Positions 1,324 to 12,428 of a stretch of 15,630 nucleotides of DNA are shown here, in pieces. The DNA is taken from the IMG/VR virus record IMGVR_UViG_2574180220_000001; one strand, 5' to 3'. Both the position numbers and the translations under genes were made by a program. The stretch's first letter is position 1. Every line of letters starts with the position of its first letter. The notes under the pieces were generated by a model. The model saw only the letters and a list, made by a program, of their open reading frames with translations. It did not search any database and was not told where the DNA came from. Source of the stretch: a virus (Duplodnaviria; Heunggongvirae; Uroviricota; Caudoviricetes).

Positions 1324-1418
1324 GAAGCCTGCTTTTTTATACTAAGTTGGCATTATAAAAAAGCATTGCTTATCAATTTGTTGCAACGAACAGGTCACTA
1401 TCAGTCAAAATAAAATCA
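1324..1418. other. Prophage attL (B-O-P'): lambda core GCTTTTTTATACTAA at 1331-1345 followed by the P' arm with Int arm-type sites and an IHF site
   Basis: Seen directly: 15-bp lambda att core, then GTTGGCATTATAAAAAAGCATTGCTTATCAATTTGTTGCAACGAACAGGTCACTATCAGTCAAAATAAAATCATTAT, matching the lambda P' arm; it abuts the 3' end of int. Confidence 0.9.
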
Positions 1419-2489
1419 TTATTTGATTTCAATTTTGTCCCACTCCCTGCCTCTGTCATCACGATACTGTGATGCCATGGTGTCCGACTTATGCCCGAGA
1501 AGATGTTGAGCAAACTTATCGCTTATCTGCTTCTCATAGAGTCTTGCAGACAAACTGCGCAACTCGTGAAAGGTAGGCGGACCCCCTTCGAAGGAAAGAC
1601 CTGATGCTTTTCGTGCGCGCATAAAATACCTTGATACTGTGCCGGATGAAAGCGGTTCGCGACGAGTAGATGCAATTATGGTTTCTCCGCCAAGAATCTC
1701 TTTGCATTTATCAAGTGTTTCCTTCATTGATATTCCGAGAGCATCAACATGCAATGCTGTTGGGATGGCAATTTTTACGCCTGTTTTGCTTTGCTCGACA
1801 TAAAGATATCCATCTACGATATCAGACCACTTCATTTCGCATAAATCACCAACTCGCTGCCCGGTAACAACAGCCAGTTCCATTGCAAGTCTAAGCCAAC
1901 ATGGTGATGATTCTGCTGCTTGATAAATTTTCAGGTATTCGTCAGCCGTAAGTCTTGATCTCCTTACCTCTGATTTTGCAGCGCGAGTGGCTGCGACCGG
2001 GTTTGTTGTTATATGGCCTTCAGCTATAGCCTCTCGGAATGCATCGCTCAGTGTTGATCTGATTAACTTGGCTGATGCCGCCTTGCCCTCGTCTATGTAT
2101 CCATTGAGCATTGCCGCAATTTCTTTTGTGGTGATGTCTTCAAGTGGAGCATCAGGCAGACCCCTCCTTATTGCTTTAATTTTGCTCATGTAATTTATGA
2201 GTGTCTTCTGCTTGATTCCTCTGCTGGCCAGGATTTTTTCGTAGCGATCAAGCCATGAATGTAACGTAACGGAATTATCACTGTTGATTCTCGCTGTCAG
2301 AGGCTTGTGTTTGTGTCCTGAAAATAACTCAATGTTGGCCTGTATAGCTTCAGTGATTGCGATTCGCCTGTCTCGGCCTAATCCAAACTCTTTACCCGTC
2401 CTTGGGTCCCTGTAGCAGTAATATCCATTGTTTCTTATATAAAGGTTAGGGGGTAAATCCCGGCGCTCATGACTTCGCCTTCTTCCCAT
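1419..2489 (-). CDS. int: Lambda-type tyrosine integrase Int
   Basis: 356-aa ORF (MGRRRSHERRDLPPNLYIRNNGYYCYRDPRTGKEF...) essentially as I recall lambda Int; 3' end adjacent to attL and 5' end overlapping xis, as in lambda. Confidence 0.97.
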   Translation of the reverse strand: MGRRRSHERRDLPPNLYIRNNGYYCYRDPRTGKEFGLGRDRRIAITEAIQANIELFSGHKHKPLTARINSDNSVTLHSWLDRYEKILASRGIKQKTLINYMSKIKAIRRGLPDAPLEDITTKEIAAMLNGYIDEGKAASAKLIRSTLSDAFREAIAEGHITTNPVAATRAAKSEVRRSRLTADEYLKIYQAAESSPCWLRLAMELAVVTGQRVGDLCEMKWSDIVDGYLYVEQSKTGVKIAIPTALHVDALGISMKETLDKCKEILGGETIIASTRREPLSSGTVSRYFMRARKASGLSFEGGPPTFHELRSLSARLYEKQISDKFAQHLLGHKSDTMASQYRDDRGREWDKIEIK

Positions 2490-2685
2490 TTCTGATCCTC
2501 TTCAAAAGGCTACCTGTTACTGGTCGATTTAAGTCAACCTTTACCGCTGATTCGTGGAACAGATACTCTCTTCCATCCTTAACCGGAGGAGGGAATATCC
2601 TGCACTCGCGTACCCATCGACGAACTGTTTCAAGGCTTCTTGGGCGTCGCTGGCGTGCGTTCCACTCCTGAAGTGTCAAGTACAT
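2467..2685 (-). CDS. xis: Excisionase Xis
   Basis: 72-aa ORF MYLTLQEWNARQRRPRSLETVRRWVRECRIFPPPVKDGREYLFHESAVKVDLNRPVTGSLLKRIRNGKKAKS, matching lambda Xis; overlaps int start. Confidence 0.95.
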   Translation of the reverse strand: MYLTLQEWNARQRRPRSLETVRRWVRECRIFPPPVKDGREYLFHESAVKVDLNRPVTGSLLKRIRNGKKAKS

Positions 2686-2711
2686 CGCAAAGTCTCCGCA
2701 ATTACACGCAA

Positions 2712-2735
2712 GAAAAAACCGCCATCAGGCGGCTT
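2712..2735 (-). terminator. Putative intrinsic terminator hairpin (GCCGCC-UGAU-GGCGG followed by U6 on the minus-strand transcript)
   Basis: Seen in sequence: GC stem with 4-nt loop and a run of six T on the minus strand; overlaps the stop codon of the 55-aa ORF upstream of xis. Confidence 0.4.
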
Positions 2736-2892
2736 GGTGTTCTTTCAGTTCTTCAATTCGAATATTGGTTACGTCTGCATGTGCTATCTGCGCCCACAGC
2801 ATCCAGTGGTCATAGCAGTCGCTGATGTTCTCGGCTTCGATAACTCTGTTGAATGGTTCTCCATTCCATTCACCTGTAACTCGGAAGTGCAT
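2725..2892 (-). CDS. Small hypothetical protein (lambda orf-55-like), 55 aa
   Basis: Hand-translated minus-strand ORF MHFRVTGEWNGEPFNRVIEAENISDCYDHWMLWAQIAHADVTNIRIEELKEHQAA; below the 60-aa cutoff of the ORF track. Size and position between xis and ea8.5 match lambda. Confidence 0.6.
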   Translation of the reverse strand: MHFRVTGEWNGEPFNRVIEAENISDCYDHWMLWAQIAHADVTNIRIEELKEHQAA

Positions 2893-2980
2893 TTATCATC
2901 GCCATAAAACAAAACTCGCCGTAGCGAGTTCAGATAAAAGAAATCCCCGCGAGTGCGAGGATAGTTACTTGTTCATATTA

Positions 2981-3376: not shown

Positions 3377-4105
3377 TTATAGCTCCTTTAATCGAGGCGG
3401 TTCTGGTAGAGGCATCCAGTGGGTTACACCGCCAATTGGCTCATCGTCGTCGTACTCCAATGCGGCTATATAGAACCCGTCACGACGAGAATAAGAAATC
3501 CCGGACATTACAATGCCATCCGAAACAACAATAATGTCACCCGTTTCTTTCGGCATTCGCTCACTACAGCTTATCCAACCATCCGGAGTCACCGGAAGCG
3601 AGAACGGCAGCACATCTCTGTGAACAAGTTTTTGCTGTGACAGGTTATCCAGAACTTTCTGTACTGCTGCATCACCGAATACACCAAGCGCATCTGCCAT
3701 AACTCCTACAACCTGATAAGCCTCAGCGCATACCGTGGATAAACCATCCGGAATTACCGGAGAGTTACGGTCCTTGCGGTAAATCCGGCATGTACAGGAT
3801 TCATTGTCCTGCTCAAAGTCCATGCCATCAAACTGCTGGTTTTCATTGATGATGCGGGACCAGCCATCAACGCCCACCACCGGAACAATGCCGTTCTGCT
3901 TATCAGGGAAGGCGTAAATTTCTTTCGTCCACGGATTAAGGCCGTACTGGTTGGCGACGATCAGCAATGCGATGAACTGCGCATCGCTGGCATCACCTTT
4001 AAATGCCGTCTGGCGAAGAGTGGTGATCAGTTCCTGTGGGTCGACAGAATCCATGCCGACACGTTCAGCCAGCTTCCCAGCCAGCGTTGCGAGTGCTGTA
4101 CTCAT
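3377..4105 (-). CDS. Chimeric ORF: N-terminal ~115 aa of Bet (Red-beta annealing protein) fused in frame to a non-Bet C-terminus ending in a DUF551-like motif (VTHWMPLPEPP)
   Basis: Residues 1-115 (MSTALATLAGKLAERVGMDSVDPQELITTLRQ...NESCTCRIYRKDRN) match lambda Bet; the sequence then diverges completely (SPVIPDGLSTVCAEAY...GGVTHWMPLPEPPRLKEL). No exo gene lies downstream. Junction near plus coordinate 3760. Confidence 0.8.
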   Translation of the reverse strand: MSTALATLAGKLAERVGMDSVDPQELITTLRQTAFKGDASDAQFIALLIVANQYGLNPWTKEIYAFPDKQNGIVPVVGVDGWSRIINENQQFDGMDFEQDNESCTCRIYRKDRNSPVIPDGLSTVCAEAYQVVGVMADALGVFGDAAVQKVLDNLSQQKLVHRDVLPFSLPVTPDGWISCSERMPKETGDIIVVSDGIVMSGISYSRRDGFYIAALEYDDDEPIGGVTHWMPLPEPPRLKEL

Positions 4106-4110
4106 CCGTT

Positions 4111-4527
4111 TTATACCTCTGAATCAATATCAACCTGGTGGTGAGCAATGGTTTCAACCATGTACCGGATGTGTTCTGCCATGCGCTCCTGAAACTCAAC
4201 ATCGTCATCAAACGCACGGGTAATGGCTTTTTTGCTGGCCCCGTGGCGTTGCAAATGATCGATGCATAGCGATTCAAACAGGTGCTGGGGCAGGCCTTTT
4301 TCCATGTCGTCTGCCAGTTCTGCCTCTTTCTCTTCACGGGCGATCTGCTGGTAGTGACGCGCCCAGCTCTGAGCCTCAAGACGATCCTGAATGTAATAAG
4401 CGTTCATGGCTGAACTCCTGAAATAGCTGTGAAAATATCGTCCGCGAAATGCCGGGCTGATTAGGAAAACAGGGAAGGGGGGTAGTGAATGCTTTTGCTT
4501 GATCTCAGTTTCAGTATTAATATCCAT
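4111..4527 (-). CDS. gam: Gam (RecBCD inhibitor), 138 aa
   Basis: [15 protein letters not shown]...[10 protein letters not shown] matches lambda Gam; internal Met (MNAYYIQ) corresponds to the GamS start. Confidence 0.95.
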
Positions 4528-4625
4528 TTTTTATAAGCGTCGACGGCCTCACGAAACATCTTTTCATCGCCAATAAAAGTGGCGATAGTGAATTTAGTCT
4601 GGATAGCCATAAGTGTTTGATCCAT
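4461..4625 (-). CDS. kil: Kil (FtsZ-targeting host-killing peptide), ~54 aa here
   Basis: [39 protein letters not shown]...; start has an AGGAG Shine-Dalgarno and overlaps cIII by 32 nt and gam by 67 nt. I recall lambda Kil as 47 aa, so the C-terminus may be extended here. Confidence 0.8.
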
Positions 4626-4758
4626 TTTTTGGGACTCCTGGCTGATTAAGTATGTCGATAAGGCGTTTCCATCCGTCACGTAATTTACGGGTGATTCGTT
4701 CAAGTAAAGATTCGGAAGGGCAGCCAGCAACAGGCCACCCTGCAATGGCATATTGCAT
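4594..4758 (-). CDS. cIII: CIII (FtsH/HflB inhibitor), 54 aa
   Basis: Hand-translated [54 protein letters not shown] with AAGGAG Shine-Dalgarno; below the ORF-track size cutoff. Confidence 0.9.
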   Translation of the reverse strand: MQYAIAGWPVAGCPSESLLERITRKLRDGWKRLIDILNQPGVPKNGSNTYGYPD

Positions 4759-4785
4759 GGTGTGCTCCTTATTTATACATAACGA

Positions 4786-4808
4786 AAAACGCCTCGAGTG
4801 AAGCGTTA
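4786..4808 (-). terminator. Weak terminator-like hairpin between ea10 and cIII (short stem followed by U5 on the minus transcript)
   Basis: Seen in sequence: AACGC...GCGTT stem around an XhoI palindrome, then TTTTT on the minus strand. Could correspond to a pL-operon terminator; weak. Confidence 0.3.
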
Positions 4809-4830
4809 TTGGTATGCGGTAACGCCGCGC

Positions 4831-5199
4831 TCAGGCGGCTTTGATAGTCATATCATCTGGATCAAATATTCCTGATGTATCGATATCGGTAATTCTTATT
4901 CCTTCGCTACCATCCATTGGAGGCCATCCTTCCTGACCATTTCCATCATTCCAGTCGAACTCACACACAACACCATATGCATTTAAGTCGCTTGAAATTG
5001 CTATAAGCAGAGCATGTTGCGCCAGCATGATTAATACAGCATTTAATACAGAGCCGTGTTTATTGAGTCGGTATTCAGAGTCTGACCAGAAATTATTAAT
5101 CTGGTGAAGTTTTTCCTCTGTCATTACGTCATGATCGATTTCAATTTCTATTGATGCTTTCCAGTCGTAATCAATGATGTATTTTTTGATGTTTGACAT
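4831..5199 (-). CDS. ea10: Ea10 (lambda Ssb-like protein), 122 aa
   Basis: 122-aa ORF MSNIKKYIIDYDWKASIEIEIDHDVMTEEKL... matching lambda Ea10 in size, sequence and position. Confidence 0.9.
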   Translation of the reverse strand: MSNIKKYIIDYDWKASIEIEIDHDVMTEEKLHQINNFWSDSEYRLNKHGSVLNAVLIMLAQHALLIAISSDLNAYGVVCEFDWNDGNGQEGWPPMDGSEGIRITDIDTSGIFDPDDMTIKAA

Positions 5200-5381
5200 C
5201 TATTCATATCCTCATAGATAAAAAATCGCCCTCACACTGGAGGGCAAAGAAGATTTCCAATAATCAGAACAAGTCGGCTCCTGTTTAGTTACGAGCGACA
5301 TTGCTCCGTGTATTCACTCGTTGGAATGAATACACAGTGCAGTGTTTATTCTGTTATTTATGCCAAAAATAAAGGCCACTA

Positions 5382-5582
5382 TCAGGCAGCTTTGTTGTTC
5401 TGTTTACCAAGTTCTCTGGCAATCATTGCCGTCGTTCGTATTGCCCATTTATCGACATATTTCCCATCATCCATTACAGGAAACATTTCTTCAGGCTTAA
5501 CCATGCATTCCGATTGCAGCTTGCATCCATTGCATCGCTTGAATTGTCCACACCATTGATTTTTATCAATAGTCGTAGTCAT
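5382..5582 (-). CDS. ral: Ral (restriction alleviation protein), 66 aa
   Basis: MTTTIDKNQWCGQFKRCNGCKLQSECMVKPEEMFPVMDDGKYVDKWAIRTTAMIARELGKQNNKAA matches lambda Ral; 183-bp spacing to ea10 as in lambda. Confidence 0.92.
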   Translation of the reverse strand: MTTTIDKNQWCGQFKRCNGCKLQSECMVKPEEMFPVMDDGKYVDKWAIRTTAMIARELGKQNNKAA

Positions 5583-5687
5583 ACGGATAGTCCTGGTATT
5601 GTTCCATCACATCCTGAGGATGCTCTTCGAACTCTTCAAATTCTTCTTCCATGTATCACCTTAAATAGTGGATTGCGGTAGTAAAGA

Positions 5688-5909
5688 TTGTGCATGGCCC
5701 GTCTGAAAAAGAACAACAGCGATTTGCACGATTTATTAGTAGATTATTATATAGTCGGTATGACATTCATGTCACTGGCAGGTAAGCATTGCTGCTCTGA
5801 TGGTTATATCGGGAAAAGGTTACAAAAGGCTGAGGGCATAATTGAAGGGATGTTAATGGCATTAGATATCCGGTTAGAGATGGATATCGTTGTTAATAAC
5901 TCTAATTAA
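5688..5909 (+). pseudogene. 5'-truncated remnant (C-terminal ~71 aa) of an antiterminator Q gene of the phage 82 / DLP12 QuuD type
   Basis: [71 protein letters not shown] resembles the C-terminus of Q82/QuuD as I recall it; frame is closed by a TAA just upstream; lies immediately upstream of the porin and lysis genes, where Q sits in DLP12/PA-2-type phages. Lambda-like sequence ends at about 5693. Confidence 0.55.
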
Positions 5910-6097: not shown

Positions 6098-7180
6098 TTA
6101 GAACTGGTAAACCATACCTACAGCAACGATATCATCGGTAGCAACGCCAGATGCTTTCGTGAAATCGCTCTTATCAATCAGGTTGATTTTGTAGTCAACA
6201 AAAGTGGACATATTTTTGTTGAAGTAATAGGTTGCACCTACATCAACATATTCAACCAGGTCCTGATCACCCCAAACACCCAAGTCTTTTCCTTTAGAAT
6301 GCAGGTAAGCAACGGATGGACGCAGGCCGAAGTCGAACTGATATTGTGCAACAGCTTCGAAGTTTTGTGCTTTGTTGGCAATATGGTTATTACCAAAAAC
6401 AGTCATGTTCTGGGTTTCAGAATAGGTGGTAGCCAGATAGATGTTGTTCGCATCATATTTCAGACCAGCTGCCCATACTTCAGCATTTTGACCAGAAGCA
6501 TTCAGACCGTTGTTACCGTAGATAACCTGATTATTAGTGCGATCAGATTTAGCATAGGTTGCACCCACGCCGAATCCTTCATACTCATAAGTAGTTGAGA
6601 AACCGAAACCATCGCCATTAGCTTCAGTTACTTCATTTCGGTCATTTTTGCCCTGATACTGAGCTGCAAAGTTCAGGCCATCAACCAGACCAAAGAAGTC
6701 GTTGTTACGATAAGTTGCAACACCTGTGGTGCGACCAGTCATGAATACATCTGTTTGGGTCCAGGTATCGCCACCGAATTCTGGCAGAACGTCGGTCCAT
6801 GCACCGATGTCGTATGCTACACCGTAGTTACGGCCGTAATCGATGGAGCCGTAGTCACCGAATTTCAGGCCAGCGAAGGCAAGACGGGTTTTATCTTTGG
6901 AGGAACCTTGAGATTCAGCGCGGTTGCCTTTGAATTCATATTCCCACTGACCGAAACCAGTCAGTTGATCGTTGATTTGGGTTTCACCTTTGAAGCCAAG
7001 ACGGGCATAAGTAGTATCACCATCATCTGCATCATTAGAGGAGAAGTAGTGCTTGGCATTAACTTTCCCGTACAGATCCAGCTTGTTACTGTCTTTATTA
7101 TAAATTTCAGCTGCCTGAGCAGACATCGCCATCAGTACTGATGCAGCTACAGCAGAAATTGCCACTGTTAATTTTTTCAT
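6098..7180 (-). CDS. nmpC: OmpC-family general porin, prophage-encoded NmpC/Lc-like, intact (360 aa)
   Basis: Signal peptide [23 protein letters not shown], porin motifs ([57 protein letters not shown]), C-terminal VYQF. Position between Q and the holin matches the lc/nmpC moron of PA-2/DLP12. Confidence 0.85.
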
Positions 7181-7608
7181 CGTGAGCCCTTTTTTTTGAA
7201 CTATTATTAAAAAATGATGTCACTGCGCGATAAATATTCATCTAATCAATGTGATTATTTCAAGATGTAAGTTTTAGTTTCTCGTTTGATTTGTGAAGTA
7301 GATCTCTATTTTTATCTGAACTTTTTTCTATCGAATCCTATTCATGGCTCTTGGCTGAATAAAAATAAATCTATTAGCCAATTTATATTAACGGCTGTTA
7401 TTTATAAGTGCTCTATAATTTGAAGGTTCAATTTAAACCGGCTAAAAATAACACTGGAAATTATTTATTGGTTATTTGTTGAGATTTTCTTATGTATTTG
7501 TAGTGGTGTTTTCAATACTCGGTAGCATTCTCGCAAATATCATTTAGTGGTTTACGTACGTAAAAAATTGGTTATGCTGTTAAGAGTGGTTACTTCGTCA
7601 CACAGCTT

Positions 7609-7641
7609 AAACCCGCCGTCGAGCGGGTTTTTCCATTTTTT
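7609..7641 (+). terminator. Intrinsic terminator upstream of the holin gene, tR'-like (AAACCCGC-CGTCGA-GCGGGTTT then TTCCATTTTTT)
   Basis: Seen in sequence: 8-bp stem and T-rich tract on the plus strand about 130 bp before the holin start. A possible late promoter (TTTACG ... TATGCT, about 7551-7578) precedes it, with low confidence. Confidence 0.5.
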
Positions 7642-7769
7642 GAGTCTCGATATTAGCTGATAACCCAATACCTGAGTTATTCACTGACTCCGAGTCTGTT
7701 ACGTTTCTGCTTTTTTGCGATACGTTGTATTCCCTCAATTTACACCCGCTTTGTCTGCGAGGTGGGGTT

Positions 7770-7985
7770 ATGAAATCCATGGATAAGTTAACAACGGGTG
7801 TCGCCTATGGCACCTCAGCAGGTAGTGCCGGTTACTGGTTTTTACAGCTGCTCGATAAAGTCACGCCCTCACAGTGGGCAGCAATAGGTGTGCTGGGTAG
7901 CCTGGTATTTGGCCTGCTGACGTACCTGACAAACCTTTATTTCAAGATTAAAGAAGATAAGCGCAAGGCTGCGAGAGGTGAATAA
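7770..7985 (+). CDS. S: Class II holin (pinholin), phage 21 S-type, 71 aa with dual-start motif MKSMDK
   Basis: [71 protein letters not shown] resembles S21 / EssD; GGTGGGG Shine-Dalgarno. The track ORF 7725..7985 begins at an upstream start. Confidence 0.85.
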
Positions 7986-8482
7986 TGCCTCCATCATTAC
8001 GAAAAGCCGTTGCTGCTGCTATTGGTGGCGGAGCAATTGCTATAGCATCAGTGTTAATTACTGGCCCAAGTGGTAACGATGGTCTGGAAGGTGTCAGCTA
8101 CGTACCATACAAAGATATCGTTGGCGTATGGACTGTATGTCACGGACACACCGGAAAAGACATCATGCTCGGTAAAACGTATACCAAAGCAGAATGCAAA
8201 GCACTCTTGAATAAAGACCTTGCCACTGTCGCCAGACAAATTAACCCGTACATCAAAGTCGATATACCGGAAACAACGCGCGGCGCTCTTTACTCATTCG
8301 TTTACAACGTGGGTGCTGGCAATTTCAGAACATCGACGCTTCTTCGCAAAATAAACCAGGGCGATATCAAAGGCGCATGTGATCAGCTACGTCGCTGGAC
8401 ATATGCTGGCGGTAAGCAATGGAAAGGTCTCATGACTCGTCGTGAGATTGAGCGTGAAATCTGTTTGTGGGGTCAGCAATGA
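7985..8482 (+). CDS. R: SAR endolysin (T4-lysozyme-like, GH24), phage 21 R-type, 165 aa
   Basis: N-terminal Gly/Ala-rich signal-arrest-release segment ([20 protein letters not shown]), catalytic E-x8-D/C-x5-T region ([23 protein letters not shown]); start overlaps the holin stop. Confidence 0.9.
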
Positions 8483-8940
8483 ACAGAGTAACCGCGATTA
8501 TCTCCGCTCTGGTTATCTGCATCATCGTCTACCTGTCATGGGCTGTTAATCATTACCGTGATAACGCCATTACCTACAAAGCCCAGCGCGACAAAAATGC
8601 CAGAGAACTGAAGCTGGCGAACGCGGCAATTACTGACATGCAGATGCGTCAGCGTGATGTTGCTGCGCTCGATGCAAAATACACGAAGGAGTTAGCTGAT
8701 GCTAAAGCTGAAAATGATGCTCTGCGTGATGATGTTGCCGCTGGTCGTCGTCGGTTGCACATCAAAGCAGTCTGTCAGTCAGTGCGTGAAGCCACCACCG
8801 CCTCCGGCGTGGATAATGCAGCCTCCCCCCGACTGGCAGACACCGCTGAACGGGATTATTTCACCCTCAGAGAGAGGCTGATCACTATGCAAAAACAACT
8901 GGAAGGAACCCAGAAGTATATTAATGAGCAGTGCAGATAG
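8479..8940 (+). CDS. Rz: Rz inner-membrane spanin (i-spanin)
   Basis: [55 protein letters not shown]... matches lambda Rz; ATGA overlap with the R stop. Track lists 8467 as an alternative upstream start. Confidence 0.9.
8699..8881 (+). CDS. Rz1: Rz1 outer-membrane lipoprotein spanin (o-spanin), embedded in the +1 frame of Rz
   Basis: [60 protein letters not shown]; lipobox LVVVGC and proline-rich region; fully nested inside Rz as in lambda. Confidence 0.9.
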
Positions 8941-8971
8941 AGTTGCCCATATCGATGGGCAACTCATGCAA

Positions 8972-9265
8972 TTATTGTGAGCAATACACACGCGCTTCCA
9001 GCGGAGTATAAATGCCTAAAGTAATAAAACCGAGCAATCCATTTACGAATGTTTGCTGGGTTTCTGTTTTAACAACATTTTCTGCGCCGCCACAAATTTT
9101 GGCTGCATCGACAGTTTTCTTCTGCCCAATTCCAGAAACGAAGAAATGATGGGTGATGGTTTCCTTTGGTGCTACTGCTGCCGGTTTGTTTTGAACAGTA
9201 AACGTCTGTTGAGCACATCCTGTAATAAGCAGGGCCAGCGCAGTAGCGAGTAGCATTTTTTTCAT
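8972..9265 (-). CDS. bor: Bor lipoprotein (serum-resistance, Iss-like lysogenic conversion protein), 97 aa
   Basis: MKKMLLATALALLITGCAQQTFTVQNKPAAVAPKETITHHFFVSGIGQKKTVDAAKICGG... matches lambda Bor; lipobox LITGC. Confidence 0.9.
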   Translation of the reverse strand: MKKMLLATALALLITGCAQQTFTVQNKPAAVAPKETITHHFFVSGIGQKKTVDAAKICGGAENVVKTETQQTFVNGLLGFITLGIYTPLEARVYCSQ

Positions 9266-9555
9266 GGTGTTATTCCCGATGCTTTTTGAAGTTCGCAGAA
9301 TCGTATGTGTAGAAAATTAAACAAACCCTAAACAATGAGTTGAAATTTCATATTGTTAATATTTATTAATGTATGTCAGGTGCGATGAATCGTCATTGTA
9401 TTCCCGGATTAACTATGTCCACAGCCCTGACGGGGAACTTCTCTGCGGGAGTGTCCGGGAATAATTAAAAACGATGCACACAGGGTTTAGCGCGTACACG
9501 TATTGCATTATGCCAACGCCCCGGTGCTGACACGGAAGAAACCGGACGTTATGAT

Positions 9556-10089
9556 TTAGCGTGGAAAGATTTGTGTAGTGTTCTGAATGCTCTCAGTAAA
9601 TAGTAATGAATTATCAAAGGTATAGTAATATCTTTTATGTTCATGGATATTTGTAACCCATCGGAAAACTCCTGCTTTAGCAAGATTTTCCCTGTATTGC
9701 TGAAATGTGATTTCTCTTGATTTCAACCTATCATAGGACGTTTCTATAAGATGCGTGTTTCTTGAGAATTTAACATTTACAACCTTTTTAAGTCCTTTTA
9801 TTAACACGGTGTTATCGTTTTCTAACACGATGTGAATATTATCTGTGGCTAGATAGTAAATATAATGTGAGACGTTGTGACGTTTTAGTTCAGAATAAAA
9901 CAATTCACAGTTTAAATCTTTTCGCACTTGATCGAATATTTCTTTAAAAATGGCAACCTGAGCCATTGGTAAAACCTTCCATGTGATACGAGGGCGCGTA
10001 GTTTGCATTATCGTTTTTATCGTTTCAATCTGGTCTGACCTCTTTGTGTTTTGTTGATGATTTATGTCAAATATTAGGAATGTTTTCAC
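9556..10089 (-). CDS. Hypothetical protein at the position of lambda p78, possibly DUF1398 / YbcV-like; function unknown
   Basis: 177-aa ORF; size and spacing to bor and to the next ORF match the lambda right arm. An internal Met ([11 protein letters not shown]...) would give 136 aa, the size I recall for DLP12 YbcV. Family assignment is from memory only. Confidence 0.65.
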
Positions 10090-10251
10090 TTAATAGTATT
10101 GGTTGCGTAACAAAGTGCGGTCCTGCTGGCATTCTGGAGGGAAATACAACCGACAGATGTATGTAAGGCCAACGTGCTCAAATCTTCATACAGAAAGATT
10201 TGAAGTAATATTTTAACCGCTAGATGAAGAGCAAGCGCATGGAGCGACAAA

Positions 10252-10458
10252 ATGAATAAAGAACAATCTGCTGATGATCCCTCCGTGGATCTGATTCGTG
10301 TAAAAAATATGCTTAATAGCACCATTTCTATGAGTTACCCTGATGTTGTAATTGCATGTATAGAACATAAGGTGTCTCTGGAAGCATTCAGAGCAATTGA
10401 GGCAGCGTTGGTGAAGCACGATAATAATATGAAGGATTATTCCCTGGTGGTTGACTGA
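10252..10458 (+). CDS. Hypothetical 68-aa protein at the position of lambda p79 (YbcW-like)
   Basis: [71 protein letters not shown]; 163-bp spacing from the preceding ORF as in lambda. Confidence 0.6.
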
Positions 10459-10622
10459 TCACCATAACTGCTAATCATTCAAACTATTTAGCCTGTGACA
10501 GAGCCAACACGCAGTCTGTCACTGTCAGGAAAGTGGTAAAACTGCAACTCAATTACTGCAATGCCCTCGTAATTAAGTGAATTTACAATATCGTCCTGTT
10601 CGGAGGGAAGAACGCGGGATGT

Positions 10623-10817
10623 TCATTCTTCATCACTTTTAATTGATGTATATGCTCTCTTTTCTGACGTTAGTCTCCGACGGCAGGCTTCAATGACCCA
10701 GGCTGAGAAATTCCCGGACCCTTTTTGCTCAAGAGCGATGTTAATTTGTTCAATCATTTGGTTAGGAAAGCGGATGTTGCGGGTTGTTGTTCTGCGGGTT
10801 CTGTTCTTCGTTGACAT
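10623..10817 (-). CDS. Putative ribbon-helix-helix (Arc/CopG-like) DNA-binding protein, 64 aa
   Basis: MSTKNRTRRTTTRNIRFPNQMIEQINIALEQKGSGNFSAWVIEACRRRLTSEKRAYTSIKSDEE: basic N-terminal tail, beta-strand (RNIRFP), helix, G-x-S-x-N turn, second helix; typical RHH pattern. Lies ~200-400 bp upstream of cos. No strong Shine-Dalgarno. Confidence 0.45.
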   Translation of the reverse strand: MSTKNRTRRTTTRNIRFPNQMIEQINIALEQKGSGNFSAWVIEACRRRLTSEKRAYTSIKSDEE

Positions 10818-11009
10818 GAGGTTGCCCCGTATTCAGTGTCGCTGATTTGTATTGTCTGAAGTTGTTTTTACGTTAAGTTGATGCAGATCAATTAATACGA
10901 TACCTGCGTCATAATTGATTATTTGACGTGGTTTGATGGCGTAGATGCACGTTGTGACATGCAGATGATAATTATTATCATTTTGCGGGTCCTTTCCGGT
11001 GATCCGACA

Positions 11010-11200
11010 GGTTACGGGGCGGCGACCTCGCGGGTTTTCGCTATTTATGAAAATTTTCCGGTTTAAGGCGTTTCCGTTCTTCTTCGTCATAACTTAATGT
11101 TTTTATTTAAAATACCCTCTGAAAAGAAAGGAAGCGACAGGTGCTGAAAGCGAGCTTTTTGGCCTCTGTCGTTTCCTTTCTCTGTTTTTGTCCGTGGAAT
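11010..11200. other. cos region: cosN 12-nt cohesive-end sequence GGGCGGCGACCT at about 11017-11028, followed by cosB up to the nu1 start
   Basis: Seen in sequence: GGGCGGCGACCTCGCGGGTTTTCGCTATTTATGAAAATTTTCCGGTTTAAGGCG... matches the lambda left end / cos junction as I recall it. Confidence 0.85.
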
Positions 11201-11205
11201 GAACA

Positions 11206-11775
11206 ATGGAAGTCAACAAAAAGCAGCTGGCTGACATTTTCGGTGCGAGTATCCGTACCATTCAGAACTGGCAGGAACAGGGAATGCCCGTTCTGCGAGG
11301 CGGTGGCAAGGGTAATGAGGTGCTTTATGACTCTGCCGCCGTCATAAAATGGTATGCCGAAAGGGATGCTGAAATTGAGAACGAAAAGCTGCGCCGGGAG
11401 GTTGAAGAACTGCGGCAGGCCAGCGAGGCAGATCTCCAGCCAGGGACTATTGAGTACGAACGCCATCGACTTACGCGTGCGCAGGCCGACGCACAGGAAC
11501 TGAAGAATGCCAGAGACTCCGCTGAAGTGGTGGAAACCGCATTCTGTACTTTCGTGTTGTCGCGGATCGCAGGTGAAATTGCCAGTATTCTCGACGGGAT
11601 CCCCCTGTCGGTGCAGCGGCGTTTTCCGGAACTGGAAAACCGACATGTTGATTTCCTGAAACGGGATATCATCAAAGCCATGAACAAAGCAGCCGCGCTG
11701 GATGAACTGATAACGGGGCTAAAGCGCAGGCGCTCACTATCAACAAGGATGAGGTTAACTCAACTGTTGATTTAA
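11206..11775 (+). CDS. nu1: Terminase small subunit Nu1 with its C-terminus replaced (first ~170 aa lambda-like, last ~19 aa unrelated)
   Basis: MEVNKKQLADIFGASIRTIQNWQEQGMPVLRGGGKGNEVLYDSAAVIKWY... matches lambda Nu1 up to ...KAMNKAAALDELI, then diverges (TGLKRRRSLSTRMRLTQLLI); no terminase large subunit gene follows. Confidence 0.85.
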   Translation: MEVNKKQLADIFGASIRTIQNWQEQGMPVLRGGGKGNEVLYDSAAVIKWYAERDAEIENEKLRREVEELRQASEADLQPGTIEYERHRLTRAQADAQELKNARDSAEVVETAFCTFVLSRIAGEIASILDGIPLSVQRRFPELENRHVDFLKRDIIKAMNKAAALDELITGLKRRRSLSTRMRLTQLLI

Positions 11776-12428
11776 CTCTTACAAAACAAACAGGGACTGG
11801 AAATCGTTTTGTTTTACAGAACTTAGGTAATACAGAACTATCATTTGCCGCAAAAGTATGGGGATCAAGTGATCGACAAAACGTTTTTGAGGTTGGAACG
11901 TCTGCTGCGTATCTGTTTTATGCGCAAAAAACGTCAGCAGGCCAGTTGTTTGATGTAAATGGCGCTATTAATTGCACAACGCTGAATCAGTCATCAGACC
12001 GCGACCTTAAAGACGATATTCTCGTTATCAGCGACGCGACGAAAGCAATCCGTAAAATGAACGGATACACCTACACGCTCAGGGAAAACGGGATGCCTTA
12101 TGCTGGCGTTATTGCACAGGAAGTAATGGAGGCGATACCAGAAGCTGTGGGATCGTTTACTCATTACGGTGAAGAGTTGCAGGGACCAACGGTTGACGGC
12201 AATGAATTACGTGAAGAAACACGTTATCTGAATGTTGACTACGCCGCCGTGACGGGGTTACTTGTTCAGGTCGCCCGTGAAACAGATGGTCGCGTTACCG
12301 CGCTGGAAGAGGAAAACATAACGCTACGTAAAAATCTGGCAACAGCAGGCACCCGGATCAGCACTCTGGAAAATCAGGTAAGCGAACTGGTTGCACTTGT
12401 CCGGCAGTTAACAGGAAGCGAACATTGA
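11706..12428 (+). pseudogene. C-terminal fragment of a tail fibre / tailspike gene carrying a peptidase S74-type intramolecular chaperone domain; no own start at the junction
   Basis: Frame is open from the nu1 junction; contains the autoproteolysis-type motif SSDRDLKDDI followed by NGYTYTLRENGMPYAGVIAQEVMEAIPEAV and a C-terminal coiled-coil-like segment. Track reports only the Met-initiated part, 11946..12428. Confidence 0.6.

Follow-up and report, generated by a model that had tools for sequence, protein, structure and literature searches.

The window analysed here, a stretch of 15,630 nucleotides (nt) corresponding to IMG/VR virus record IMGVR_UViG_2574180220_000001, is a decayed lambda-like prophage within an E. 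coli chromosome, and the element under study is a small open reading frame (ORF) close to its cos site. Window positions 1331-2967 align to lambda 27724-29360 (att core, int and xis) and 3758-5693 to lambda 32463-34398 (bet to ral), in both cases with 98-99% identity, while 8479-11016 align to lambda 45966-48502 (Rz to the right end, 99.4%) and 11017-11718 to lambda 1-703 (cos and nu1, 98-99%). The closest chromosome was that of E. coli EC130, in which the gene order is essD-rrrD-rzpD-bor-ybcV-ybcW-ylcI-nohD, followed by tail-fibre fragments and, beyond them, ybhB-bioA. The ORF occupies 10623..10817 on the minus strand, where a preliminary description had placed it, and runs from an ATG start to a stop within these coordinates, encoding 64 amino acids (aa) with the translation MSTKNRTRRTTTRNIRFPNQMIEQINIALEQKGSGNFSAWVIEACRRRLTSEKRAYTSIKSDEE. 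Given the lambda cohesive end at 11017 and the alignment of the window to lambda, the ORF corresponds to lambda 48109-48303 and ends 199 base pairs (bp) to the left of cosN. Since nu1 (nohD) begins at 11206 on the other strand, the two genes point away from each other across cos. On the ylcI strand, 164 nt devoid of ORFs follow the gene before the convergent ybcW; in K-12, RNA-seq data list ybcW-ylcI as a convergent excludon with overlapping transcripts (PMC12288877).

An exact-sequence look-up revealed that the encoded protein is identical to UniProt YLCI_ECOLI. It was present on at least 989 contigs, with WP-type entries named 'YlcI/YnfO family protein', and it matched Pfam PF13132 (DUF3950) with 72.8 bits against a cut-off of 25 (E 1.9e-20), NCBIfam NF041551 (YlcI_YnfO_N) with 37.6 bits against a cut-off of 30, and phrog_949, labelled 'unknown function' (E 2.5e-35). 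The signature of the YlcI/YnfO family, K/R-x-IRF-P...NFSAWV-x-[ED]-AC, is present in the window protein. Over 37 diverse family members, I15, R16, F37, S38 and V41 were invariant, and F17, I25, N36, W40, A44 and C45 were conserved in at least 90%. The genomic slot, bor-ybcV-ybcW-ylcI-nohD, is also that of E. coli ylcI, and no difference was found from the gene known in this family (PF13132, NF041551, PHROG 949; YlcI of DLP12 in K-12 and YnfO of Qin). The ORF is the already catalogued gene ylcI, and its discovery is in itself ordinary; that it is a new gene is not supported, given its identity to YLCI_ECOLI and its membership of DUF3950 and YlcI/YnfO. Its description as unannotated-looking is correct for the lambda RefSeq record NC_001416 only, which omits ylcI and whose last coding sequence (CDS) ends at 47944, and this omission is why the ORF seemed unannotated. 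E. coli RefSeq annotates it as ylcI and several newer phage records name its product 'YlcI/YnfO family protein' or 'hypothetical protein'. In the literature searched, no function is assigned to the YlcI/YnfO family.

Within 2.5 kb, 24 ORFs reach 30 aa or more, and the length of the ylcI ORF alone is therefore unremarkable; it stands above chance because of its conservation. Selection was assessed by the Nei-Gojobori method on codons 1-49, comparing the lambda-type copy with copies of Shiga toxin (Stx) phages whose flanks are unrelated, the homology beginning at the ATG. The copies differed at 24-30 nt, 17-26 of them at third codon positions (23-26 where 28-30 nt differed; in one example pair, 28 differences split 4/1/23 by codon position), and the ratio of nonsynonymous to synonymous substitution (dN/dS) was 0.02-0.12. 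All 80 lambda-type copies from IMG/VR were intact, free of frameshifts and stops; at the DNA level 19 alleles were distinguished and at the protein level 9 variants, and the variable sites were distributed 1/4/9 by codon position. Of the natural copies translated from phages and prophages, a single one was broken, that of Stx2 phage 1717 (locus L096, 1415-1573), in which the DUF3950 gene is frameshifted after about residue 30. Core residues 1-49 are conserved, and for the C-terminal tail there are four versions, unrelated to one another, which go with the mosaic segment downstream. The preliminary description had named loss of the reading frame among related lambdoid genomes, or substitutions of noncoding type, as what would speak against the ORF. 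The frame is kept and the substitutions are of coding type, and the matter is therefore settled in favour of coding: ylcI is a real gene under purifying selection.

The top matches of the large protein search came from contigs of about 3.5 kb, were 85-100% identical and variable in length, and were unfit for selection analysis. Loci L012-L049 (e.g. L019 = CP136411.1, a 3566-bp record) reproduce lambda 45042-48488 with 99.8-100% identity and are filed under unrelated 'genomes', the hosts named being Cohnella, Aeromicrobium, Pedobacter and Polaromonas, together with an Arcanobacterium hippocoleae 'plasmid unnamed1'. In our view these contigs are the lambda control amplicon of nanopore sequencing with read errors, which would explain the error-ridden 'homologues' in the protein database. 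The A. hippocoleae paper mentions ylcI and ynfO (PMC11171008).

With respect to structure, the AlphaFold2 (AF2) model of the monomer had a mean predicted local distance difference test score (pLDDT) of 71 and contained an extended segment at residues 13-18, a helix at 19-32, a GSGN turn and a second helix at 37-62, that is, a beta-alpha-alpha fold of about 45 residues. The elements of a ribbon-helix-helix (RHH) protein listed in the preliminary description, namely a basic tail, NIRFP, a helix, the GSGN turn and a second helix, are all present. The turn between the helices reads G33-S34-G35-N36-F37-S38, in which N36, F37 and S38 are nearly or fully invariant. The list returned by Foldseek consisted mostly of RHH proteins (Arc, NikR, MazE, CopA, ParD and HicB), including the Arc structures 1PAR, 1BDV and 1MYK, with E values above 0.4. 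Alignment by hhalign of the family profile with Arc, whose sequence was checked against 1ARQ, placed N14, R16, F17 and P18 of YlcI on N11, R13, W14 and P15 of Arc (E 0.004-0.013, probability 3-8%). YlcI most likely folds as an RHH DNA-binding regulator, a membership that we accept at the level of the fold and not at that of the sequence family.

DUF3950 is a small family, with 142 representatives (50% clustering) at E <1e-3. Leaving lambda contamination aside, the genuine homologues examined in the genome scan belonged to Enterobacterales and to one Pasteurellaceae genome, and throughout this range there are homologues of 35-60% identity located away from any cos. They occur in three contexts. 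In lambdoid prophages the gene is invariably found in the interval that separates the lysis genes from the packaging genes and is transcribed against both groups, at 389 bp from nu1 where the packaging module is of the lambda cos/nu1 type and at 41 bp from the HNH gene in the HNH-terS-terL modules of Stx phages; in 434 and ev243, ylcI is followed by bor on the same strand. Qin-type prophages and ev099 carry a 77-aa YnfO variant with a longer C-terminal tail, after which the DUF1398 gene ybcV/ydfO follows on the same strand at about 42-56 nt. The second context is that of integrase-AlpA-Icd-like-primase islands, which are satellites resembling phage-inducible chromosomal islands (PICIs) or P4. 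Here the homologue, 35-47% identical, stands alone on its strand and is transcribed away from the icd-like-to-primase operon (about 25 loci). The third context comprises single chromosomal genes in Salmonella arizonae and diarizonae, Citrobacter, Tatumella, Pantoea and Rouxiella.

In two representatives (P0255 and P0198; L007 6001-6363 and L006 4714-5103) DUF3950 is fused to the first ~50 residues, the DNA-binding part, of a Terminase_2 small subunit. Each domain exceeded its Pfam cut-off, and in the satellites the fusion genes are flanked by alpA/int and the early operon. L007 has another DUF3950 gene, not fused, just upstream of the fusion gene. The satellite of this locus (6400-9800; int, alpA, icd-like, D5 primase, TerS and capsid) lies within a prophage, beside a 61-aa Terminase_2 fragment (truncated terS) and an HNH gene, and the host prophage retains a DUF3950 gene of its own (9576-9776). 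PMC10111431 describes PICIs embedded in helpers, and this satellite appears to be one of that kind. A survey of Enterobacter capsid-forming PICIs (cf-PICIs) lists YlcI/YnfO among the satellite accessory genes, and Ant genes are also among the accessory genes of some such satellites (PMC13612085).

Two further observations concern the annotation and the neighbours of these homologues. Antisense to the ylcI-like gene of satellites, a 'hypothetical protein' of 315-324 aa is annotated or callable (L004 3634-4608, minus strand, vB_KppS-Ant CAD5235979.1; L069 4634-5608; L061 4625-5572), of which only the last ~62 residues match the Icd-like family. Its long N-terminal extension of low complexity looks like a stop-free frame rather than a gene, masking the real ylcI-like ORF. 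In S. arizonae and S. diarizonae (L056/L059, 2600-5200) the orphan homologue stands beside genes for a 576-aa protein and a 113-aa acidic protein, to judge from their sequences perhaps a type III effector and its chaperone, and may be a domesticated regulator.

The control regions of the satellite homologues were compared over 170 nt upstream of about 25 genes. Two palindromes of 12-14 bp and of the type GTG-N6-CAC are located 23 bp apart, at about -105 and -82, and a third copy is found at about -35, directly after the -10-like box of the homologue. The first two overlap a good promoter on the other strand (in L069, the Klebsiella ATCC 13883 island, TTGACG-17-TATAGT, with one copy in the promoter spacer and one directly after the -10 box). 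Three copies were reached in only 0-1 of 30 shuffles in most satellite loci. The inner bases of the palindrome vary among islands and track the N-terminal arm and beta-strand of the homologue: TTKGIRF is paired with GGTGCACAWACACC (Serratia, Pectobacterium, Xenorhabdus, Arsenophonus and one Pasteurellaceae genome), AKKNIRF with TGTGCGCACA, xYKGIRF with GTGTTTAAACAC and T[KM]KNIRFE with TGGTAnnTACCA. In Mantel tests over 24 loci, operator distance correlated with the distance between N-terminal arms and beta-strands (rho 0.60, p 2e-4) and not with that of the remainder of the protein (rho 0.05, p 0.29). The positions best associated with the operator correspond to YlcI residues 11, 12 and 14, of which 12 and 14 are DNA-facing strand positions in the Arc register; in the Arc complex (1PAR), Q9, N11 and R13 contact bases. 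This is good indirect evidence, at sequence level, that family members may use the ribbon to bind the satellite palindromes, keeping the leftward operon repressed and controlling their own expression. The literature found on satellite control describes AlpA and immunity RNAs, and no DUF3950 or RHH protein.

A GC-rich hairpin (GCCCGG..CAGTG..CACT..CCGGGC) is conserved in the 5' leader of the icd-like gene, near its start (L051-L090, about 120-160 nt upstream of the ylcI-like genes; L069 4853-4885). Rfam searches at gathering thresholds of the window and four satellite loci left it unmatched; they detected no C4/isrK-like RNA near the ylcI genes and retrieved only the cIII thermoregulator (Lambda_thermo), which is intact in the window at 4713-4771 on the minus strand (88.5 bits).

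Upstream of the lambda-type ylcI, the best candidate for an operator is the 14-bp palindrome TTGAT-N4-ATCAA (Table 1). It was exact and at the same offset in nearly all lambda-type loci, and also occurred at about -76 of the orphan homologues of S. diarizonae (L056) and Citrobacter amalonaticus (L086), whose proteins are 39-48% identical to YlcI over their full length and 48-55% over the best tblastn segment; in S. arizonae one arm of the palindrome is TTGAC. Only one further exact match was found in roughly 400 kb of other loci. The lambda genome contains two exact copies against 0.09 expected, the second being located in ral (TTGATTTTTATCAA), where it could be a further target of the same binder or a chance occurrence in AT-rich DNA. 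As judged from the sequence, the odds that the palindrome at 10878-10891 is the YlcI operator are lower than even, and we put it forward as a tentative candidate.

Other elements of this region were also considered. A perfect 17-bp palindrome adjoins cosQ, and its core, GATAAT-N-ATTATC, was present in every phage aligned; GTGACA-16-TATCAT (10954-10981), a promoter-like site on the plus strand, is directed toward cos and nu1. The region also carries T[CG]ATCTGCAT...AACGT twice in direct orientation, at about 10968 and 10890. Promoters for ylcI picked by hand, TTAACG-18-TACAAA and TATTAAT, were rejected as weak and unconserved in HNH-type phages. No operator common to the lambda-type and HNH-type upstream regions was found, their sole common element being the 19-bp sequence AATCAnnnACACTGAATAC, which is inverted between them and is coding in the HNH type. 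In the window it forms part of the ylcI 5' leader (10829-10847, minus strand, 12-30 nt before the ATG), in comparison with about -97 to -79 in L092 and L007; in the HNH-type phages it encodes the N-terminus of the HNH endonuclease (RIKTLNT), the exact 11-mer match having a chance probability of ~0.02.

The reading that we favour, with a rough probability of 0.55, is that ylcI is a single-gene cassette encoding a small transcriptional regulator of the Arc/Mnt-like RHH kind that probably acts on its own control region. In lambdoid prophages the cassette runs against the late operon and separates the lysis genes from the packaging genes. YlcI would be made from its own promoter in the prophage, would dimerise, and would insert residues about 11-17 (TTRNIRF) into the major groove as a two-stranded beta-ribbon, acting as a sequence-specific transcriptional regulator. 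Its likeliest first target would be its own control region, where the best candidate site is TTGAT-N4-ATCAA, 61-74 bp upstream of the ATG. Operator binding and repression are suggested by the satellite homologues, which are divergent from the early operon and have three palindromes over the leftward promoter and their own.

Among the closest known systems are Arc and Mnt of the immI region of phage P22, whose layout was used for comparison. Like them, YlcI is small, with a basic N-terminal arm, a beta-strand and two helices, and it has the strand motif N-x-R-[FW]-P in the Arc register; ylcI is likewise embedded against the flow of the late operon, and the satellite homologue divergent from the icd-like operon recalls immI. 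In contrast to Arc and Mnt, the sequence similarity is not significant in the hhalign comparison and there is no Pfam Arc/RHH match, the lambda ylcI has no known ant gene or defined operator, and the predicted second helix is long (37-62). In the window the repressor layout amounts to a gene divergent from nu1 across cos, with a single candidate palindrome and no clear promoter. The cassette also resembles lambda morons such as bor, since it occupies the same Rz-to-cos interval on the same strand as bor and its boundaries are mosaic, the homology to HNH-type phages starting at the ATG. Bor, in contrast, is a lipoprotein with a known phenotype, whereas YlcI is a predicted cytoplasmic DNA binder.

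Several points weigh against this interpretation. No functional study of YlcI and no direct evidence of DNA binding were found in the literature searched. The preliminary description had suggested a hidden Markov model (HMM) search with PF01402 and related RHH families, and neither these models nor PF03869 reached E <=0.1 for YlcI; only a distant homologue matched RHH_6, at E 0.09. A PDB sequence-profile search gave no significant match, the fold-search statistics are weak, as is usual for a domain of 45 residues, and AF2 was run on the monomer, with a pLDDT of only 71. The RHH assignment of the preliminary description is probably right as to the fold (AF2, Foldseek) and lacks a significant match to a Pfam RHH family. 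In the satellites, part of the covariation could stem from common descent of adjacent DNA, and the repeats could be bound by a different protein. Near ylcI in the window, no satellite-type GTG-N6-CAC site was found, and a scan for sigma-70 promoters and terminators gave no convincing minus-strand promoter upstream of the gene. Finally, the HNH-TerS-type Stx phages have the same strand sequence (TTTRNIRF), while their upstream DNA is unrelated and does not contain TTGAT-N4-ATCAA; therefore, the proposed operator is not general.

The predicted fold is also that of the CopG/RHH antitoxins (TacA, ParD, VapB-RHH, MazE-RHH and the C-terminal domain of HicB), with which YlcI also shares a variable C-terminal tail after a conserved RHH core. 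It may then be asked whether ylcI is an orphan or decaying antitoxin of a type II toxin-antitoxin (TA) system whose toxin has been lost or is the DUF1398 protein YbcV/YdfO. Many of the RHH fold matches are indeed antitoxins (TacA2, VapB12, MazE, ParD and CopA_SO), there is a weak HicB-like match to phrog_497 (E 0.02), and the 77-aa variant of Qin-type prophages and ev099 is followed by the DUF1398 gene in the arrangement described above. In the window, however, no same-strand ORF follows ylcI before the convergent ybcW, and PADLOC detected neither a defence system nor a TA match. No toxin gene adjoins ylcI in most of the other contexts either, and TA-family HMMs gave no match. Moreover, the gene occurs without DUF1398 in 434, ev243, mEp332, the HNH-type phages, the satellites and the chromosomal orphans, no search result marked DUF1398 as a toxin, and the satellite genes show a repressor-style layout with operators and not a two-gene operon. 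We consider an antitoxin unlikely, and the suggestion in the preliminary description that ylcI could be an antitoxin remnant was not supported at this locus.

A comparably small chance is given to a role at the packaging site, in which YlcI would bind beside cosQ/cosN and modulate terminase or the choice of cos, for instance between helper and satellite, instead of transcription. The constant position of the prophage gene next to the packaging module, divergent from it and at the distances given above, the two satellite proteins in which DUF3950 is fused to the DNA-binding part of a Terminase_2 small subunit and the 17-bp perfect palindrome adjoining cosQ are all in line with it. Against it, cosmids with minimal cos fragments package without ylcI, so that the gene is not required in cis or in trans; most homologues, in satellites and as orphans, are far from any cos or terS, and the place beside the packaging genes may merely mark a permissive moron slot, like that of bor.

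More improbable still is a cross-talk between helper and satellite, in which the prophage paralogue of a satellite repressor would silence resident satellites or serve them as a signal. The family is common to lambdoid helpers and PICI-like satellites, the satellite of L007 lies within a prophage that has its own DUF3950 gene, and YlcI/YnfO is among the accessory genes in the Enterobacter cf-PICI survey (PMC13612085). Nevertheless, the lambda-type strand (T12, N14) and TTGAT-N4-ATCAA differ from every satellite operator class seen, a common operator was not found, and the proposal is wholly conjectural. As for a chance, noncoding ORF conserved merely through its proximity to cos, its absence from the lambda RefSeq annotation and the high conservation of the flanking 200 bp among lambda-type phages would agree with it, but it is refuted by the low dN/dS and coding-type substitutions even against copies with unrelated flanks, by the 35-60% identical homologues away from any cos and by HMM scores well above the cut-offs.

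The features of the locus are collected in Table 1.

Table 1. Features of the ylcI-cos region and related sites in the 15,630-nt window.
Feature	Position	Strand	Basis or remark
ylcI CDS, 64 aa + stop	10623..10817	-	DUF3950/YlcI-YnfO family; predicted RHH DNA-binding protein
GGGG Shine-Dalgarno-like run, 7 nt before ylcI ATG	10825..10828	-	Read from the sequence
14-bp palindrome TTGAT-GCAG-ATCAA, candidate YlcI operator (putative)	10878..10891		-74 to -61 from ylcI ATG
Second exact TTGAT-N4-ATCAA, in ral codons 5-9, overlapping orf28	5556..5569		Lambda 34261-34274
Perfect 17-bp palindrome ATGATAAT-T-ATTATCAT, 5 bp left of cosQ	10965..10981		TATCAT (-10-like) on both strands
cosQ GGGTCCT	10987..10993	+	cosQ feature annotated at the equivalent place in phage 434
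12-nt cohesive end GGGCGGCGACCT	11017..11028	+	Lambda right end maps to 11016, left end to 11017
cosB, Nu1-binding R3, R2 and R1 repeats	11069..11181	+	Recovered as one family by repeat scan
nohD / Nu1 terminase small subunit	11206..11775	+	Pfam Phage_Nu1, E 1e-100
85-aa ORF spanning cosN, rejected as a gene	10833..11090	-	Start lost, indel, replaced elsewhere
ybcW (lambdap79 homologue), convergent with ylcI	10252..10458	+	ORF call, profile match, EC130 annotation
ybcV (DUF1398)	9556..9966	-	Pfam; E. coli annotation

The phage 434 record annotates a ribosome-binding site at the position equivalent to the GGGG run. At cos, the top-strand nick of cosN falls between 11016 and 11017, and GGGTCCT and the repeats of cosB are named cosQ and R3, R2 and R1 after what is established for lambda; the recovery of these repeats served as the positive control of the repeat scan, which also gave a weaker, R4-like copy at 10989-10997. 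The lambda identity of Nu1 stops at 11718, at about residue 170, its C-terminus being replaced by unrelated sequence after about 11713-11718. The gene is joined there to tail-fibre remnants (11713-12428), including an ORF with a Peptidase_S74 chaperone domain (11946-12428), at a junction unlike that of strain EC130. On the other side of ylcI, ybcV/lambdap78 (9556-10089) is an ORF of 177 aa with a GTG start in the window and is annotated as 136 aa in E. coli. PHROG 413, and hence the lambda RefSeq record, labels this DUF1398 protein 'head protein', which looks doubtful because the gene is on the opposite strand, in the moron region and beside bor.

The 85-aa ORF upstream of ylcI does span cosN, as had been described, and the doubt already expressed over it was justified. 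Two prophages (L042 and L045) have ACG in place of its ATG, an insertion of 1 nt interrupts the frame in ev243, and unrelated sequence occupies the region in L048, where Nu1 is only 36% identical, and in the HNH-type phages. Its match to phrog_9395 covers only aa 44-85, that is, the stub left of cos that gene callers make on linear phage records.

As a finding in itself, the rediscovery of the catalogued y-gene ylcI changes little. Its practical value is a correction to NC_001416, from which a conserved gene, subject to purifying selection and annotated everywhere but there, is missing; there is also evidence of selection on ylcI even in a decayed prophage. The wider lead lies in the family, since DUF3950 proteins look like repressors of the Arc/Mnt type with recognisable operators in PICI/P4-like satellites of Enterobacterales. 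At its furthest, DUF3950/YlcI proteins would be the operator-binding immunity repressors of the large enterobacterial class of integrase-AlpA-Icd-primase satellites and the lambda/DLP12/Stx copy would be a working paralogue expressed in the prophage, with autoregulation through TTGAT-N4-ATCAA, a second target in ral and/or a link between helper and satellite by derepression or cos choice; this joint proposition is a long shot. That the DUF3950 family consists of Arc/Mnt-like repressors is a testable hypothesis, for which the satellites offer defined operator classes and lambda a candidate site. If the repressor role is true, it would provide a testable handle on satellite immunity and a function for an uncharacterised gene of the best-studied phage.

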